Shown in pieces: positions 19,953-27,638 of a DNA stretch of 50,290 nt. The stretch is taken from the NCBI GenBank assembly GCA_023267375.1, contig JAHFNJ010000007.1, forward strand, positions 1 to 50,290, in the 5' to 3' direction. How positions within the stretch are numbered: the stretch's first letter is position 1; each line of letters starts with the position of its first letter. The notes beneath the pieces were generated by a model. It had not been told where the DNA came from, did no database searches, and was given only the letters and a program-made list of their open reading frames with translations. Source of the stretch: Candidatus Nomurabacteria bacterium. GTDB taxonomy: Bacteria > Patescibacteriota > Minisyncoccia > Phycocordibacterales > UBA9973. A program made the translations under genes and the position numbers.

Positions 19953-20498
19953 TTAGTTTTTTTCTAAAGAAGCCTTGTTTTGTAAAGCTTTTCTGGTAAA
20001 AAGCGCTGTAATGATTGCAGCAAATCCCGTAAATGCCATCAGGGGAATTGTAATGTAGCCGAATTCGAAGATGTATCGCCGTGCACAGGAAACTGTTGTT
20101 CCACATGGAATAATCTCTGAACCGCCCAACTCAATATAGTAGTGATATACAGAAAGGATAATACCGATGATCGAAAAAATGAGCGCATAGCGTAAGATCT
20201 TTTCTTTTTTCTTATACAGAGCAACTCCGAAAAACAATAGTTGTGGGTACATAAAAACGCGTTGCCACCAACACAGTGTGCATGGAGCGTAGCCAACGAT
20301 ATTTGAATAGAAAAGCGAAAGGAGAATTGATGCAAGTGAAACGAGCAGTCCAATATAAAGAGCGTACGCTGATACAATGTGAAGCCACTTACTTTCTTTT
20401 TTAAAAAAGAAAAAATAAAGCGTGATGAGGATCCCTACTTGAAGCAATACTATTCCTAAAGCCAGGAGATGGTTTATTGTGGGGAGGATTGCTTGCAT
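19953..20498 (-). CDS. Disulfide bond formation protein B (DsbB/BdbC family)
   Basis: SLFYS..VGYAPCTLCWWQRVFMYP, second Cys pair (PCG...SC), GYITIP.MA. Confidence 0.88.
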   Translation of the reverse strand: MQAILPTINHLLALGIVLLQVGILITLYFFFFKKESKWLHIVSAYALYIGLLVSLASILLSLFYSNIVGYAPCTLCWWQRVFMYPQLLFFGVALYKKKEKILRYALIFSIIGIILSVYHYYIELGGSEIIPCGTTVSCARRYIFEFGYITIPLMAFTGFAAIITALFTRKALQNKASLEKN

Positions 20499-20510: not shown

Positions 20511-20903
20511 TTATGAAGGTAGTTCGCACCCCGTTTTCTCGGCTAATGTTTTCAGTGAGACACCGCTCGATGTTTCAACGGGAAGGCGAGTGCCGTCTGC
20601 AAGTTCCCATGTCGGGTATGATTTGATTTCTTTATCTTTGCAGATTTGTAGTTGGTCACTTCCATCAGGAGTTGAACATTCTATATATGGTAAAAATTCT
20701 ACTGATGCGCCAAACATTCTTTTTTGTGCTTGGCAGTGTGGACACCAGAACGCACCATAAAACTTTGCACCTGATTTTTCTAGGCATTGTGCGAATGCAT
20801 CATACTTGTGAGAACTTGCGATTCCTTTTTGGATAGCGCGCATACCGATGACGACCGCAAGAACAATGATGATGAAGATGATTATATTTTTTTTATTTGT
20901 CAT
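20511..20903 (-). CDS. Membrane-anchored thioredoxin-like protein (resembles the Trx domain of VKOR-Trx fusions)
   Basis: N-terminal TM, FYGAFWCPHC..QK.MFG, YIEC, C....IKSYPTW. Confidence 0.8.
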   Translation of the reverse strand: MTNKKNIIIFIIIVLAVVIGMRAIQKGIASSHKYDAFAQCLEKSGAKFYGAFWCPHCQAQKRMFGASVEFLPYIECSTPDGSDQLQICKDKEIKSYPTWELADGTRLPVETSSGVSLKTLAEKTGCELPS

Positions 20904-20907
20904 AAAA

Positions 20908-21216
20908 TTATTTTTTATTTTTTAATGATAACTGATGCAGAATACGGCACGGTTCGACGATGCGTGGATCGATTATATTGTAGTAACCGTTTAATCCTTT
21001 GCGATGAACGGTGACTAGTTTTGCATGGCGAAGCAATGCCAAATGTTGTGACACATTTGCCTTGGCGACTCCCAGCGTTTTAATAAGTTGTTCTACAGAC
21101 ATTTCTTGTTCGCGGAGCAGGTTCAAAATTTCCAATCGCTTTGGATTTGCGAGGATTTTATAGGTTTCAGCATTCTTTTGGTATGCAGTTCGTGGGAGGG
21201 GTTGTTTGATCTCCAT
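20908..21216 (-). CDS. ArsR/SmtB family transcriptional regulator
   Basis: KILANPKRLEILNLL...SVEQL...ANVSQHLALLR winged HTH; ATG at 21216. Confidence 0.9.
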   Translation of the reverse strand: MEIKQPLPRTAYQKNAETYKILANPKRLEILNLLREQEMSVEQLIKTLGVAKANVSQHLALLRHAKLVTVHRKGLNGYYNIIDPRIVEPCRILHQLSLKNKK

Positions 21217-21254
21217 AGTTTCTAAAGTATGCAACAATTAGACCCAAAAAGCAA

Positions 21255-23105
21255 TTACGCTTCTTTTTTCACAAAGCGGAATATAAGTGCGATAACCAGC
21301 ACCAGAACTGTTCCAATGAGTATATTATTTTTTATGGTAGTACCACTCGTTGCCACATTTGCGAGTAGTATATTTTGTTGTGTTGTTTCAGTTGGTGTAT
21401 TAATTGTCGGTGGCTCTATTGGTGAAGGTGCTATCGTTTGTGTCGTGATTATTTTTATTTTTTCAGCAGTCACGATCGGTGTAGATTCTTTAAGTTCTTG
21501 TCTTGGTACTGGCGTAAAAATTTCACCCCATGTCTTACCGGTGATTGCTGGAATCGCATAGCTTGTTGCCCAGATTCTATTTTGGACTGACTCTGTTTCT
21601 TTGAGTACTCCGCCATCTTTTGATTGATTCATTCCTAAATAGGCAACTCCATCTTTGCCGTTTTTCTCCCAGGCTGCTTTTTGTGCCTTTTCAGCCTGAA
21701 GTACCCAGCTTGTTGTATACACTGAATTCCATCCGCCGTCAGGTTGCTGTGCGCTTTGTAAAAATGTTTCAGCTGCTGACAGTGCGTCTTTGGCAGTTGG
21801 TACTTTTGAGAGTACCTGGATCGCAGCAGCGGTGAGGTCGATACTTCCTTCCCACGATCCGTCATCACGCTGTTTTGAAATAATAAACTGCAGATCCTTT
21901 ACAACAATATCATCGTGCAGTGTGTATCCGGCGCTCAACAGCGGAATGAGTGCGAAAATATCATCGTTCACGAGCGATGCATCGCCAAATTGTGTGCCGT
22001 CGAATGATTGTGTGATCGGTGTAATATAGTCTGTGCCATGAAAGGCGTACGGATTTTGTGAAAGGGCGAGGAGTGCCATGGTGTGGCGTTCGTTTTCGGT
22101 GAGCATTCCGTCAATAGAATTATGTGATTCCATGTAGCCAAGAATTTTGAGGCGCACGTCATCTGGCATCTTTTGAGTGGCAAGTGCAATGCTTGCCCAG
22201 TCGGTATATAAACTATTGTCACCAAATGAGCCGTCGGAATCCTGCGTGCTCAGAAGGTAGGTGACTGCGCTTTCAAGATCAAATATGTGTTGTACTGGTG
22301 CTGAGCCGCCGCTTGATTTACCCTCTTTTTCTACAACTTCCGGAATGGTTACGAGGACTTCGTAAGCGGGGAAATAGTAATCTTCGGCGATGCCAATAGT
22401 GAATGTTCCTGGTGTTGGCAGAAGGAGTGAAGCAGTTCCTGTACTATCAACTGCCTGAGACATCACGACTGTGGGGTTGTATAGATCATCGGGGTTGGGG
22501 ACGGTCGCGCCAATTGTTACTCCTTCTAGTGGACCCCAGCTATTATCGAGGTAGTTGTATGTCTCGGCCGTCGCGAGCAATGGTTCGCCTTGTACGAGAG
22601 CGGTGGAACTCAAAACTACCTGGTGCGGCGATCCGAAATAGATGCCAATAGTTTCTCCACCGGCCAGCGTTGTTGCGTCCATCCCGACTGAAGGAGTTGT
22701 GCCATCAATGACATACTGCCAATTATCGCAGAGTTCGCCACTTGTCTGCCCCTTGATGCATTTCAGATAGAGTGAATCGAAAGAGCTGTAGTATTCAATA
22801 TCAGAGAGCGAGAATGCATCGCTCGTTTGATCAAGTGCATACAAAAAACCAAGCACAGTATTGTTTGGAATTGTGTGTGTTGCTCCAGTGCTGTCGACAA
22901 CATCAATAGAGCCCGCTGTCGGAAATGAAACTGCTCCATCGAAGAGAATGGTGTCGCCGCTCCGAATAAGCAGGTTTTCTGTGGGTGACGGTAAAACAGG
23001 GTCGGGGAGTGGCGCGTCCTCTGCGTGTACATAAGCGGAAGGAGCGAGCCATATAAGAATAATCACACAGCAAACGAATATAACTTTTTTCACTGTAGGT
23101 TCCAT
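21255..23105 (-). CDS. Surface protein with a DUF4430-like domain, prenyltransferase/squalene-oxidase-like repeats and a C-terminal TM
   Basis: WQYVIDGTTPSVG (DUF4430-like); QDSDGSFG, QRDDGSWEG, QQPDGGW repeats; N-terminal signal and C-terminal anchor. Confidence 0.75.
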   Translation of the reverse strand: MEPTVKKVIFVCCVIILIWLAPSAYVHAEDAPLPDPVLPSPTENLLIRSGDTILFDGAVSFPTAGSIDVVDSTGATHTIPNNTVLGFLYALDQTSDAFSLSDIEYYSSFDSLYLKCIKGQTSGELCDNWQYVIDGTTPSVGMDATTLAGGETIGIYFGSPHQVVLSSTALVQGEPLLATAETYNYLDNSWGPLEGVTIGATVPNPDDLYNPTVVMSQAVDSTGTASLLLPTPGTFTIGIAEDYYFPAYEVLVTIPEVVEKEGKSSGGSAPVQHIFDLESAVTYLLSTQDSDGSFGDNSLYTDWASIALATQKMPDDVRLKILGYMESHNSIDGMLTENERHTMALLALSQNPYAFHGTDYITPITQSFDGTQFGDASLVNDDIFALIPLLSAGYTLHDDIVVKDLQFIISKQRDDGSWEGSIDLTAAAIQVLSKVPTAKDALSAAETFLQSAQQPDGGWNSVYTTSWVLQAEKAQKAAWEKNGKDGVAYLGMNQSKDGGVLKETESVQNRIWATSYAIPAITGKTWGEIFTPVPRQELKESTPIVTAEKIKIITTQTIAPSPIEPPTINTPTETTQQNILLANVATSGTTIKNNILIGTVLVLVIALIFRFVKKEA

Positions 23106-23485
23106 ACGATTTCATCCCCCTGGTGTGGGACATATGAAGAGACGCCGACGGACGCTTCTTTACCATTAATAAAATACATAAGGTGCAAGCCATCATGTTC
23201 ATGGAGTGATCCGATATCAGTTACAAAAAATCCGATTCCTGGGTATGTTTTTCCTGAGAAAGAAATGCGACCTGATTGTTGTGCATGGATTAATATTTCA
23301 TAGAATGTGTCTCCGCTTGAGAAAGGAAGTGATACTGATACTCCTCCTATTACTACCGGAAGATATTCGGTTGCTGAGTAGGTTCTGTCCGGCTGCTTTT
23401 GCGTGGATTCTTTGCCGTAGTGAATACTAAAAATAATACCGACGATACAGACACAAATAAGTAATACGATGTTTCTTTTATTCAT
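23090..23485 (-). CDS. Membrane-anchored DUF4430 (transcobalamin C-terminal-like) protein
   Basis: GIGFFVTDIG....MYFINGKEASVGVSSY..HQGDEIVW. The ATG at 23485 overlaps the pduO stop. Confidence 0.8.
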   Translation of the reverse strand: MNKRNIVLLICVCIVGIIFSIHYGKESTQKQPDRTYSATEYLPVVIGGVSVSLPFSSGDTFYEILIHAQQSGRISFSGKTYPGIGFFVTDIGSLHEHDGLHLMYFINGKEASVGVSSYVPHQGDEIVWNLQ

Positions 23486-24047
23486 ACTGTGGTGCATGTT
23501 CACTAAAACCTTCTTGATAGTTTGCAAAGCGTGCCATCGCGTAGAGGACACTCGATAGTCTGTTCATGAATCGGAGTGTTGTTTCTCCTATCTGGTGGGG
23601 CTCTTTTTCAAGGCAGACAATAATCATGCGCTCGGCGCGCCTGGCAATACTGCGACAAATATCAAGGTAAGCACCTGTTTCGCCTCCGCCGTAGACAGTG
23701 AATGAATGTATGGGCGGAAGCAGTGTCTCAATTTCCGCGGTGACCAATTCTGCAAATAGCACTGCCTCATCGGTAATTTTTTTATCGGCTCCACCAAGTT
23801 CTGCTTGGATGGTGAAAAGGATATTCTGTAATTGATTGATAATTGTTTCGTAGGATGTTTTCACCCCCTTGATTCCCACGGTGTCTCCCGATTTTGTAGC
23901 CAATACTTTTGCATAACCTAACGATGCATTCAATTCATCGAGCGTGCCGAGCGCTTCAAAAACGGGTGCACTTTTTAAATGACGCACTCCTTGCGTGGAG
24001 TTAAAGAGCTTCGTTGTTCCGTTGTCTCCTTTTCTGGTGTAGAGCAT
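23478..24047 (-). CDS. pduO: ATP:cob(I)alamin adenosyltransferase, PduO type
   Basis: LYTRKGDNGTT, GTLDELNA.LG, RSIARRAER, NRLSS.LY..AR. Confidence 0.92.
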   Translation of the reverse strand: MLYTRKGDNGTTKLFNSTQGVRHLKSAPVFEALGTLDELNASLGYAKVLATKSGDTVGIKGVKTSYETIINQLQNILFTIQAELGGADKKITDEAVLFAELVTAEIETLLPPIHSFTVYGGGETGAYLDICRSIARRAERMIIVCLEKEPHQIGETTLRFMNRLSSVLYAMARFANYQEGFSEHAPQYE

Positions 24048-24052
24048 AGTAT

Positions 24053-26320
24053 TTAAATTTCACACAGCCCTCCCGCACAGGCGAGCTCGCGTTTCACCTC
24101 AGTACTATCCTCTTTTTCATAGGTGACAATTTTTGAAAAATCGAGATCACCCAAGCGCTTGGTCATTTCCTCATACTTTTCCTTGGTGATTGCTTCATAG
24201 GGCGCAAGTTGGTAGACATGGTTTGATCGTGGTAGGAATGAAAGGCCGCCGACGAGGTCCCAGTTTTCATAGACCCAGTGTGCGACTTTGAGCCACTCAT
24301 CATCGCCTACAGAAATGGTGACAGATGGATTGTGTTCGGTGTAGTGCTGTTTGACGATCTTCCAGTGCTCAAGTTGTTCGATGGCGTTGATATCATCTTT
24401 ACAGATCGCTCCTTCCGGCGCTTTCACCGGGAATTCAAGGACGAAGGTCGAAGCGTTTTCAACGGTCTGTCCGATTTCCGGATAGTAAGGAACACCTTGG
24501 TCTTTGAGCATTTTGAACAACGTGTCAGTCGCTGAAATGCGGACGCGGCGGATATAGTACGGTGCATGGCGCGGGTGCATGCCTGAAGCGCAGTCGACGG
24601 TTTGCGAGACCGTGCCCGATGGTTTGACGCAGGTGATGCAGGTCGATTGATTGACGCCAAACTTCTTTGCGTACTTTTTGTTTGTTTCAATTGCCACCGC
24701 TTTCATTTTTTCAAGCATTTTGGGATCGCGGGCGAGTGCTGAGTCCCATTGTCCGGTAATTGAAACACCGAGCAGTCGTTCCTTTTCGCAATTTTTCTTC
24801 CACTCTTTTGAAAGGTAGGGGAAGTAGGTGAGTGTTGATTGGTACGTTCCCAAAATGGTTGCGATGCGTACTTTCTCGAGTAATGTTTTTTCGGTATCAT
24901 CGGCGCGGGCAACAACTTCCGATAAATTACAGAACTGTTTCGATTGCAGAATAATTTCTCCGCATGGATTTGTTCCCCATGCAGGGAGTGGGGCATCTTT
25001 CCATTGATTCAGTCGGCGTTTTGGTAGTGTGCCCAAGAGTCCACCACGGTTAAAAATGCCTCGTTCACCGCTTTCACTTTTAACGAGCGCAATCCATTCA
25101 TCGAGAAATTCCGTGGTTGTTGGTTTTGAAAGGTAGACGGCCGAGTTGTTGGCGAGCATGCGCTGGCCTTCGGAAATATAGAACTGGCCTTTCTTTGAAT
25201 CACGGATTGCTTCATCGTCGAGGTCTGACAATGAAATCATCGCGCTGCGGCGCACGCCGCCGGCTACGACGCATTCGCCGATTTTGCAGATAATATCGTG
25301 CGCATCAAGGTTTGAGAGGTGTCTGCCTTGGCGACGGAGGATACGCTCACGCGAGAATGAGAGCAGTGATTCAAGCGGAGCTGGTCCGGAACTTTTGCCA
25401 CCCATCGTCTGGAGGCGTGATCCTGCCGGGCGGATTTGGGAATAGTCAAAGGTAACGTCATCTCCATCAAACCACGTTTTAAGACCGAAGGCGAATGCAT
25501 CGGCCCACCCTTCTTTGCTATCGGGGACCACATAGGTTGGCAGTTTTTTGCCTGTTTGCTTTTGGATCTGGGGAAGTGCTTGAATATTGTCGCTTTCGAC
25601 TGACCAGCCGACACCAGTGCCACACATCGAGATGTACATGATTTCGGCAAAATCTTGGAATGTTCGCGGTGCGATAAACGAGCAATTATATGCACAAACA
25701 TTGGTCCGTCGGGCAGCTTTTCCGGCAAATTGGAGGAGCCGCATCGATGGCATCGATTCTTGATTGAGCACTGCTTCTCGGAGTTCTCTGTATTCGTTTT
25801 CGGTGAGCTTTGATCCGATATTCTCGCGCATGAACGCGATGTAACGGTCGATGGTCTCAACCCATGTCTCGCGCCGATCTTCTTCGGGTATCCATTTGGC
25901 GTAGCTTCGATAGTACACAAATTCAGCGAGCGGGTTTCTGAAATACTTTTTACTTTCGATAGCGAGCTCGCGTACTTTCTCGGGTACCGTGCCTACTTTT
26001 TCACGAATGAGCGAGCGCTCTTTTCGATAGAGAATGTATGACTTTGCTGCCTGTAAGAATCCTGATGCAATCAGTTCGTTCTCGACGATATCTTGTATCG
26101 TTTCTACATGCGGGATAAATACTTTAATCTTCTTTTCTTTTTTAAATGCGAGCAGTGCATCTAAGACATGCGTCATGACGGCGCGTGCATCAATCTCGGT
26201 GCCTTCCTGTACTGATTGCATGGCACTCGTGATCGCTCTCGTAATACGTTTCTCATCAAACGGCACAATGGTACCATCGCGCTTTTGAATAGTTGAAAGC
26301 GCGCTATACTTTTTTTTCAT
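24053..26320 (-). CDS. nrdJ: Adenosylcobalamin-dependent (class II) ribonucleotide reductase with an N-terminal ATP cone
   Basis: ATP cone (IQKRDGTIVPFD), YYRSYAKW, GGVRRSAMI, TNPCGEI active site, TCVKPSGTVS, C-terminal CAGGLCEI. Confidence 0.94.
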   Translation of the reverse strand: MKKKYSALSTIQKRDGTIVPFDEKRITRAITSAMQSVQEGTEIDARAVMTHVLDALLAFKKEKKIKVFIPHVETIQDIVENELIASGFLQAAKSYILYRKERSLIREKVGTVPEKVRELAIESKKYFRNPLAEFVYYRSYAKWIPEEDRRETWVETIDRYIAFMRENIGSKLTENEYRELREAVLNQESMPSMRLLQFAGKAARRTNVCAYNCSFIAPRTFQDFAEIMYISMCGTGVGWSVESDNIQALPQIQKQTGKKLPTYVVPDSKEGWADAFAFGLKTWFDGDDVTFDYSQIRPAGSRLQTMGGKSSGPAPLESLLSFSRERILRRQGRHLSNLDAHDIICKIGECVVAGGVRRSAMISLSDLDDEAIRDSKKGQFYISEGQRMLANNSAVYLSKPTTTEFLDEWIALVKSESGERGIFNRGGLLGTLPKRRLNQWKDAPLPAWGTNPCGEIILQSKQFCNLSEVVARADDTEKTLLEKVRIATILGTYQSTLTYFPYLSKEWKKNCEKERLLGVSITGQWDSALARDPKMLEKMKAVAIETNKKYAKKFGVNQSTCITCVKPSGTVSQTVDCASGMHPRHAPYYIRRVRISATDTLFKMLKDQGVPYYPEIGQTVENASTFVLEFPVKAPEGAICKDDINAIEQLEHWKIVKQHYTEHNPSVTISVGDDEWLKVAHWVYENWDLVGGLSFLPRSNHVYQLAPYEAITKEKYEEMTKRLGDLDFSKIVTYEKEDSTEVKRELACAGGLCEI

Positions 26321-26868
26321 AGCGTTTTGTATTTTTTATTAGTAATAATTGAAACAGCTGACCGTGATGCATTTTTATTTTTTGCTGCAAGCGTATAGAT
26401 CATTGGTGAGAGGAGTATTGCGAAGCTGACATTGCCAAGGAGGTGGAGCGCGGTGAATGGGATCTGCCCGATGAGCGCTGCCATGAATGGTTGGTGAAAA
26501 AAGAGCGGTCCGATTGAAAGTCCGGTGACTGCATCGTACGCAAGCGTTCCCATAACGGCGAATGCCGCGTAATTTCTCACACTACTTTTTTTATTCTTGA
26601 GATACGCGTATGCCCAGATGCCGAGCGCTCCGTAGGCGAAGGCGGTAATGATCGTCCACACTCCGATTTTACCAGTGAGAGCATCGAAGATGACCATGCT
26701 TGAGAATGCAAACAAGAAACTGGCGGTTTTGCCGTAGGCTTTAGCAAACGGCATCTCCATGGCGAGGATCGGTTCGATGTTTGGCGCGCGGAAGGGGAGG
26801 AGTCTGACGATAAGACAGACGAAAAATCCGATACTATATATAGAGAGATTGTGTTTAGGGAGTTTCAT
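26317..26868 (-). CDS. Predicted ECF-type S-component membrane protein, probably for cobalamin uptake
   Basis: About 6 TM segments, R..P...PNIEPILA motif; stop overlaps the nrdJ start (ATGA). Substrate inferred from context. Confidence 0.6.
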   Translation of the reverse strand: MKLPKHNLSIYSIGFFVCLIVRLLPFRAPNIEPILAMEMPFAKAYGKTASFLFAFSSMVIFDALTGKIGVWTIITAFAYGALGIWAYAYLKNKKSSVRNYAAFAVMGTLAYDAVTGLSIGPLFFHQPFMAALIGQIPFTALHLLGNVSFAILLSPMIYTLAAKNKNASRSAVSIITNKKYKTL

Positions 26869-27074
26869 AAATGTATGAGTGCACTGTTTCATATATATCA
26901 CTAAACGAGGTATACTAGTTTAGTAGTTGCGAAACTATGCAACTGATTGGGAGTTTATTATACGCGAGCTTCGTCATCTCGCGAAAGTGGATAACTGATA
27001 GTGATACAGAAGCAATCATTCGTAAAGCACTACGTGCAAAAAAGGCGAAAATTGCTGTATACTATTTAGTATAT

Positions 27075-27638
27075 ATGGAAACAATTAATAATTTTGTAGA
27101 AATTCCTGAACCAAAACTCTCGCGTTTTTTGTTCTCGAACACGAAGATGGCATGGTTCTGGCTTATTGTTCGCGTGTACGTCGGTTGGCAGTGGATCGAA
27201 GCAGGGTGGGGAAAAATCCACAATCCCGCATGGGTGGGAAGTGATGCCGGTCAGGCCTTGTCTGGTTTTATCCAAGGGGCGCTCGCCAAAATGAGTGGTG
27301 CGCACCCAGATGTGCAAGGATGGTACGGCACTTTTTTGCAAAACGGAGTGCTTCCGCATGCAAGTCTGTGGTCACATGTGGTTGCGTACGGTGAGTTGTT
27401 GGTTGGTGTGGCACTCGTGCTCGGCCTCTTTGCTGGAATTGCTGCATTCTTTGGAACTTTCATGAATTTCAATTTTCTTTTAGCGGGGGCAGTATCCGTG
27501 AATCCAATTCTTGGATTTTTAGGACTCTTCTTGATTTTGGCATGGCGTGTTGCCGGCTGGTGGGGGCTTGATCGCTGGGTATTGCCGGCGGTCGGTACTC
27601 CGTGGAAACCCGGGGAACTGTTTACTAAAACGCAGTAA
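27075..27638 (+). CDS. DoxX/DoxD (TQO small subunit) family membrane protein
   Basis: WLIVRVYVGWQWIEAGWGKI, VAYGELLVG..L.LGLF, FMNFNFLLAG, LDRW. Start METINN at 27075. Confidence 0.85.
   Translation: METINNFVEIPEPKLSRFLFSNTKMAWFWLIVRVYVGWQWIEAGWGKIHNPAWVGSDAGQALSGFIQGALAKMSGAHPDVQGWYGTFLQNGVLPHASLWSHVVAYGELLVGVALVLGLFAGIAAFFGTFMNFNFLLAGAVSVNPILGFLGLFLILAWRVAGWWGLDRWVLPAVGTPWKPGELFTKTQ

Follow-up and report, generated by a model that had tools for sequence, protein, structure and literature searches.

The window analyzed here, a whole contig of 50,290 bp (JAHFNJ010000007.1), comes from the genome of a Candidatus Nomurabacteria bacterium (847,608 bp, 14 contigs, 94.4% complete) and carries a row of five genes on the minus strand, the last two of which encode a small and a large putative surface protein with DUF4430-like domains. 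The row is headed by the gene of an S-component-like membrane protein (26317..26901; an open reading frame (ORF) of 194 residues with a family match from 26868). It is followed by the gene of a class II, adenosylcobalamin-dependent ribonucleotide reductase with an ATP-cone (NrdJ, 24053..26320), which was identified by NCBIfam TIGR02505 RTPR (E = 5.9e-89) and by the Pfam families ATP-cone and RNR-II_ins_dom, and by the gene of a PduO-type cob(I)alamin adenosyltransferase (23478..24047; Pfam Cob_adeno_trans, E = 2.7e-38; TIGR00636, E = 5.4e-38). Directly after these three genes lie those of the small protein of 131 residues (23090..23485; Pfam DUF4430, E = 1.4e-11, 45.1 bits) and the large protein of 616 residues (21255..23105; Pfam DUF4430 and SQHop_cyclase_C). 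These two are the only DUF4430 matches in the entire genome. A sequence-only reading of this DNA had described both as membrane-anchored surface proteins, one of them with additional Q..DG repeats, and had proposed that together they form a transcobalamin-like trap for vitamin B12. The positions of both genes, the DUF4430-like domains, the repeats and the anchoring signals were confirmed by Pfam, shuffled sequences and hydropathy. All features described below are encoded on the minus strand.

The ORF of the small gene (23090-23551) reaches a GTG codon at 23551 and thereby overlaps the PduO gene, and translation from the ATG at 23485 yields the form of 131 residues that is also the public gene call (P0241). 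Its sole hydrophobic helix, predicted from hydropathy to span the membrane, is located at the N-terminus (residues 1-26, nt 23408-23485). After a short linker, the remainder of the protein (residues 35-131, nt 23093-23383) consists of a domain that is transcobalamin-beta-like SLBB/DUF4430 by Pfam and by fold. The protein was modeled with AlphaFold2 from an alignment of 44 sequences, with a predicted local distance difference test (pLDDT) score of 89.4, and the model was compared by VIA with 48,161 PDB representatives. The best match was bovine transcobalamin, residues 313-412 (Z = 13.8, 95 residues aligned at a root-mean-square deviation (rmsd) of 2.4), followed on ranks 2 to 5 by the beta domains of human transcobalamin (13.6), intrinsic factor (13.4) and haptocorrin (12.9), and by the bacterial DUF4430 protein 3u7z (12.4). 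Below these five, the highest-scoring chain was a generic beta-grasp protein with a Z-score of 6.9. Similarly, Foldseek returned 19 matches at E <= 1e-3 (E = 5.5e-6), and all of those listed were the same transcobalamin-type or DUF4430 proteins, including 5np4, which is titled as the isolated transcobalamin beta domain with cyanocobalamin. As far as the predicted fold shows, the domain of the small protein is thus specifically of the transcobalamin, intrinsic factor and haptocorrin beta-domain type. The nearest solved bacterial structure, 3u7z (RUMGNA_00854 of Ruminococcus gnavus; rmsd 1.6, 86 residues aligned, 13% identity), was submitted to the PDB under the label 'putative metal binding protein', and no function has been shown for it. 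No match was obtained when the small protein alone was searched against the PDB by sequence.

The large protein begins with a signal-peptide-like N-terminus (residues 1-29, nt 23018..23105) predicted from hydropathy, with the cleavage site between AYVHA and ED judged by eye. The AlphaFold2 model, built from an alignment of 38 sequences (mean pLDDT 84.6), shows three domains: a beta-grasp-like domain (residues 42-160), a beta-sandwich (161-255) and a toroid of 12 helices (273-532). The first of these (nt 22626..22982) is a diverged SLBB/DUF4430 domain with the invariant residues Cys116 and Cys126 and a CDNWQY motif, whose Pfam match covers residues 90-158 (E = 5.4e-5) and, at 24.0 bits, lies barely above the cut-off of 23.8 bits. 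In the family of the large protein, DUF4430 was matched in 17 of 38 members (best E = 4.2e-13). A comparison of this domain with the small-protein family by hhalign gave a weak match (probability 19%, E = 1.2e-3), and by their sequences the beta domains of the two proteins appear to be strongly diverged paralogs. The second domain, an all-beta spacer consisting of strands only (nt 22341..22625, pLDDT about 86-96), had no place in the sequence-only reading, which was right about the DUF4430 domain and the helical repeats. Relatives show SpaA hits (5 of 38) and CarboxypepD_reg hits (3 of 38) in this spacer, and many family members bear additional Ig-like surface domains. In one relative of 1120 residues (locus L022, 1106-4468; genome G138, contig C43), three tandem modules of DUF4430 plus beta-sandwich precede a single toroid, and the small gene lies upstream.

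The toroid of the large protein (nt 21510..22289, pLDDT mostly >90) contains five Q..DG motifs at residues 288, 366, 412, 453 and 494, and at least four such motifs occurred in 0 of 2000 shuffled sequences. Pfam SQHop_cyclase_C matches residues 391-459 (E = 2e-9) and was found in 38 of 38 family members. Within a VNDD motif (residues 379-382, nt 21960-21971), Asp381 and Asp382 are invariant and Asn380 is nearly so; this motif may be a remnant of a ligand contact. The toroid is followed by a Pro/Thr-rich stalk (residues 541-588, pLDDT 32-42) and a C-terminal membrane helix predicted from hydropathy at residues 589-615 and modeled at 593-615; stalk and C-terminus together occupy residues 541-616 (nt 21255..21485). 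In the VIA comparison, the toroid superposed on the alpha domains of the transcobalamin type across 227-237 residues, with intrinsic factor at rank 5 (Z = 20.1, 227 aligned, rmsd 2.9, chain 17-268), transcobalamin at rank 11 (Z = 18.6) and haptocorrin at rank 14 (Z = 18.2). Pfam Cobalamin_bind (PF01122) was matched weakly, at E <= 0.1, in 20 of 38 family members (best E = 8.2e-6, one above the cut-off). The structural likeness to transcobalamin predicted from the sequence was therefore found when the check was run, with Z-scores of 12.9-13.8 for the small domain against beta domains of this type and of 18.2-20.1 for the toroid against their alpha domains.

To place the pair in its wider context, we examined 79 loci with relatives of the large protein in species-representative genomes, all of them metagenome-assembled, and 9 further loci from a sample of the order. 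The source names of the large-protein homologs include Candidatus Nomurabacteria, Falkowbacteria, Parcubacteria and Patescibacteria group, and nearly all of the 79 loci are titled with such candidate-phylum names, the remainder with generic or other labels. Four loci (L068, L073, L080 and L082) are titled 'uncultured Gammaproteobacteria' and many 'Candidatus Saccharibacteria'. Because their cassettes are 44-46% identical to that of the window, as are those of Paceibacterota records, these labels look unreliable. A small gene lies directly upstream of the large one and on the same strand in 72 of the 79 loci (71 of the 72 with at least 600 nt of upstream sequence) and in 6 of the 9 order-level loci. 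Where at least 4.5 kb of upstream DNA was available (58 loci), the S-component and NrdJ were each found in 40 and PduO in 28. The gene order is mostly that of the window, with a variant in which the reductase is followed by the S-component, the small and the large gene. Some relatives whose large protein has no DUF4430 match retain the small gene, and two in which the small gene is missing retain DUF4430 in cis. This suggests that the cassette never lacks a beta domain altogether.

The key finding in the relatives is that the cassette tends to be preceded by a cobalamin riboswitch. Of 10 loci scanned with Rfam, 7 have an AdoCbl, AdoCbl-II or Cobalamin riboswitch above the gathering score directly before the small gene, and the same scan of further loci, chosen because no reductase was nearby, gave a riboswitch in 7 of 8. 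A covariance model of our own, built from six of the Rfam hits and used to search 1.25 Mb, gave 68 matches, corresponding to 60 of the 79 loci and 8 of the 9 order-level loci. Since 7 of the 19 unmatched loci had no upstream DNA, the rate among loci with upstream DNA is 60 of 72. All matches lie on the strand of the genes and upstream of the large ORF, at a distance of 74-1388 nt (median 554), and the rest of the 1.25 Mb gave none. For the 18 loci with at least 4.5 kb upstream and no NrdJ, the scan covered 27 of 185 neighboring ORFs, which belong to 9 of these loci. They matched housekeeping families (FtsA, FtsZ, pyridine-nucleotide disulphide oxidoreductase, RNase J, MFS and others), and no further B12 genes were present among these 27. 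The occurrence of the riboswitch before the cassette, whether or not NrdJ is nearby, is independent evidence that the products of the cassette deal with B12.

No protein with a B12-binding domain, no FecCD/BtuC transporter and no CobS or CobD/CbiB were found in the genome of the window, the last two being the marker families by which B12 synthesis was assessed. From these absences, the class II reductase appears as the only B12 user detected in the genome, and the vitamin would have to come from outside. In the sample of 151 genomes of the order, NrdJ was present in 108 genomes, PduO in 85, and both together in all 10 that encode the large protein. The genome also encodes the large and small subunits of a class I ribonucleotide reductase (G000 contig C5:110529-113428, locus L103), so that the B12-dependent enzyme of the window is a second reductase. 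The cell can probably dispense with B12 under some conditions.

The S-component-like protein at the head of the row matches Pfam ECF-ribofla_trS below the cut-off (E = 1.5e-4), and 20 of 21 sampled members of its family match as well. The family comprises 1231 homologs, mostly of 181 residues, some of which are named 'ECF transporter S component' (ECF, energy-coupling factor). A search of the family profile against the PDB gave a sole match, and a weak one, to the ECF-CbrT B12 transporter entry 6fnp_A (E = 0.023). EcfT/CbiQ (PF02361) was not found in the genome of the window or in 5 relatives with the S-component (the EcfA ATPase was not searched for), and because no EcfT was found the S-component would need to function by itself. 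In its family, one cysteine (Cys29 of the 194-residue ORF) is invariant, and a stretch R..P.FRPPN.EP close to the first helix is conserved. In the B12 transporter BtuM, a cysteine serves as cobalt ligand according to the available text of PMC6072759.

Taken together, the fold of the beta domain, the cobalamin riboswitches before the pair in 60 of 72 relatives and the conserved synteny support the B12-capture function that the sequence-only reading had put forward. We consider it probable that a corrinoid is captured on the outside of the cell by the toroid acting together with a beta domain, from where the vitamin passes to the S-component, PduO and NrdJ. The large protein would be exported and held in the membrane by its C-terminal helix on a flexible stalk, displaying the toroid together with its own beta domain, and the small protein would supply a second beta domain tethered by its N-terminal helix. 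The corrinoid would be clamped between the face of the toroid and a beta domain, either in cis or in trans, and would then be handed to the membrane S-component without an ECF energising module. Inside the cell, PduO would adenosylate the corrinoid for the class II ribonucleotide reductase. Of these steps we infer the binding itself, the choice of the beta domain that closes the clamp and the hand-over to the transporter.

However, several results weigh against this interpretation. No riboswitch was detected in the window, neither by Rfam over all 50,290 bases nor in permissive scans of 26500-27400 and 22900-24300 nor with our own covariance model. Because the PduO gene ends within the small gene, the two leave no space for a riboswitch between them, and the window belongs to a minority in which the pair is joined straight to the reductase operon without a switch. 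Moreover, a riboswitch shows that a gene is regulated by B12, not that its product binds B12. When the family profile of the small protein was searched against the PDB, bovine transcobalamin was reached at an E-value of 0.69 only. The best VIA matches of the toroid are squalene-hopene cyclase and its relatives (Z = 20.7-22.8), and dozens of unrelated alpha/alpha toroids score 16-19. By sequence, the large protein and its family profile found cyclases (profile E = 1.1e-12), prenyltransferases and complement TED in the PDB, not transcobalamin, and the large protein of the window itself has no Cobalamin_bind match at E <= 0.1. The predicted TM-score of 0.51 makes the model unreliable with respect to the mutual packing of the domains of the large protein. 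Finally, in the 151 genomes of the order the S-component is present in 7 and occurs together with the large protein in 3, so that the coupling of the two is not obligatory, and NrdJ in 108 genomes stands against the large protein in 10.

As terpene cyclases score higher than the B12 carriers, the modeled toroid is consistent in fold and size with an alpha domain of the transcobalamin type but not diagnostic of the ligand. The barrel likeness to B12 carriers that had been expected from the sequence thus holds for the fold and the size, and not for specificity. The public annotation of such genes as 'terpene cyclase/mutase family protein' implies an enzyme of the terpene cyclase or prenyltransferase type, to which the best sequence and fold matches, the Q..DG repeats and the names in the source records all point. 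Nevertheless, NCBIfam TIGR01787 gives 44.9 bits as compared to a cut-off of 322.7, the protein has a single toroid of about 260 residues and is predicted to be exported and anchored outside, and its genomic context is B12 rather than isoprenoid metabolism. The large protein also lacks a D.DD motif, having VNDD at a place comparable to that of the DxDD acid motif in class II terpene cyclases. An enzymatic function of this kind is very improbable, and the identification as a cyclase was rejected because the scores are far under the cut-offs and the DxDD motif is missing.

Within the B12-capture interpretation, it is possible, if doubtful, that the tethered small beta domain is a shuttle and not a lid. 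The large protein would then trap B12 on its stalk, at a distance from the membrane, and the small protein would take it over and deliver it to an S-component working with no ECF module. An isolated transcobalamin beta domain can hold cyanocobalamin (5np4). Such a shuttle would be the first extracytoplasmic substrate-delivery protein for S-component transporters, a class defined by needing none, and a living model of the bacterial ancestor of the relay of animal B12 carriers.

Among the alternatives to B12 capture, the one that survives best is a clamp of the same kind whose ligand is another tetrapyrrole or an incomplete corrinoid, such as heme or cobinamide; we regard it as unlikely. In Lactobacillus sakei, an alpha-like and a beta-like transcobalamin protein, homologous to the present pair and encoded separately within an ECF operon, have been argued to serve heme uptake, which also counts against B12 as the ligand here, although this claim is based on docking and uptake phenotypes in the available text of bioRxiv 10.1101/864751. 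Cobinamide is also carried by ECF-CbrT according to the part of PMC5997447 that was available, and haptocorrin, one of the structural matches, has been solved with cobinamide (4kkj). On the other hand, NrdJ and PduO are both cobalamin-specific, the regulator in the relatives is a cobalamin riboswitch, and no CobS or CobD/CbiB that could complete cobinamide was found in the genome.

It is quite improbable that the pair is regulated by B12 without binding it, as a surface adhesin or a glycan-binding or -processing module that is switched on when B12 is scarce and lets a cell of the episymbiont type attach to or feed on a B12-producing partner. The toroids with Z-scores of 16-19 to the large-protein model include many glycoside hydrolases and epimerases, a sister clade of SLBB binds polysaccharide (PMC1796856, as far as its text was available), and the Ig-like domains in many family members would fit a role in surface attachment. 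Yet the match of the small domain is specific for the B12-binding clade, all other beta-grasps scoring lower by about 5.5 Z units or more, and no glycoside hydrolase family was matched by sequence.

A small bacterial thioester protein of the alpha-2-macroglobulin or complement kind, acting as a protease trap or a covalent adhesin, is scarcely credible: such proteins (alpha-2-macroglobulin, C3/C4/C5, CD109) lead the Foldseek search with the whole model (E = 3.8e-9 and weaker) and Pfam TED_complement is weakly matched in 32 of 38 family members, but the alignments have TM-scores of about 0.3 and rmsd values of 20-35 A, as expected from a coincidence of beta-sandwich and toroid, there is no CxEQ motif, cysteines occur solely at positions 12, 13, 116 and 126 with none in residues 127-616, which include the toroid, and the large protein is under half the size of such proteins. 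An alpha-2-macroglobulin or complement identity was accordingly rejected on the missing thioester motif and the multi-domain coincidence.

The idea that such proteins capture B12 is not new. It was predicted independently and from other bacteria by Burroughs, Balaji, Iyer and Aravind in 2007 (PMC1796856), who, in the available text, describe bacterial surface proteins in which SLBB is fused to a toroid in either order, often with a second SLBB gene in the operon. The hosts lack B12 synthesis, and these authors predicted B12 scavenging as well as a transfer from bacteria as the origin of animal transcobalamin. The proteins studied here resemble those described in that text in being secreted or surface-exposed SLBB and toroid proteins, with the toroid C-terminal to SLBB as in the Bacillus example, in the second paralogous extracellular SLBB gene (present in the window and in 72 of 79 loci) and in a host without B12 synthesis, as judged from CobS and CobD/CbiB. 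The earlier operons contain CbiO-like ATPase and CbiQ-like genes, whereas here a lone S-component is accompanied by NrdJ and PduO, with no CbiQ/EcfT found (the ATPase was not searched for). Furthermore, the earlier lineage is that of low-GC Gram-positives and not Patescibacteria, and riboswitch control, seen here in the relatives, is not mentioned for those systems in the available part of PMC1796856.

With the animal carriers transcobalamin, intrinsic factor and haptocorrin (2bb6, 5no0/5np4, 2pmv, 4kki/4kkj), the pair shares the same two folds, with the beta domain aligned over 94-96 residues. In contrast to these carriers, which are one soluble chain with alpha before beta, the large protein has the permuted order beta, spacer, alpha; the beta-sandwich is added, a second beta protein is separate and anchored, both proteins are attached to the membrane, and the identity is 13-19%. 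The L. sakei proteins Lsa1839 and Lsa1840, as described in the available text of bioRxiv 10.1101/864751, are proposed to hand over a tetrapyrrole and have a full ECF module in the operon, with heme argued as the ligand. By comparison, the alpha-like protein of the window has a beta domain of its own and lies in a cobalamin-specific gene context, with no ECF module found.

As for the transporter, the ECF-CbrT cluster of Lactobacillus delbrueckii (nrdJ-cbrS-cbrT-pduO) likewise has the S-component beside NrdJ and PduO. According to the available text of PMC5997447, however, transport by CbrT requires the ECF module, of which none was found here, and the match is weak (E = 0.023). A precedent is provided by BtuM of Thiobacillus denitrificans, which resembles an S-component and transports B12 although its host has no ECF module (PMC6072759, available text). 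It differs in that the S-component of the window found no sequence match to it in the PDB search, and in that no extracellular helpers are mentioned for BtuM in that text.

No bench test of a bacterial member was found in the literature searched, which did not cover most subscription journals. What is new here is the membership of Patescibacteria, the near-universal riboswitch control of the two-gene cassette, and the link to a lone S-component, NrdJ and PduO with no ECF module found. Animal B12 carriers are thought to have descended from bacterial proteins of such make-up, and the present family is well suited as a test case. In many Patescibacteria it is a small cassette of two genes behind a cobalamin riboswitch, and it is often linked to the one B12 enzyme of these tiny genomes. 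It bears on how ultra-small, probably partner-dependent bacteria obtain a cofactor that they cannot make, and on whether S-component transporters can use helper proteins from outside. Public labels such as 'terpene cyclase/mutase family protein' are misleading for these genes.

Some further observations were made. As unchecked leads, the ESM Atlas contains protein clusters from Actinomycetota in which a prenyltransferase-type toroid is joined with S-component-type families (PF07155 by cluster name; DUF6580, 30% of members), and from Methanobacteriota in which such a toroid is joined with a binding protein of the Peripla_BP_2 (BtuF-type) family. Provided that they are real, such fusions would connect the toroid with uptake systems. 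In two genomes of the order, the match of the class II reductase is split in two within single frames of 1249 and 1274 residues (G040 C3:3940-7614 and G057 C13:3614-7321, respectively), as would be expected of an intein-type insertion. The large gene is followed immediately, also on the minus strand, by genes for an ArsR-type regulator (20908-21237), an exported thioredoxin-like protein (20511-20903) and DsbB (19953-20498). Homologs of these three were found near the cassette in 14, 10 and 9, respectively, of the 58 related loci with at least 4.5 kb upstream. Since the beta domain of the large protein has two invariant cysteines (116 and 126), it may be served by a dedicated disulfide-forming pair.

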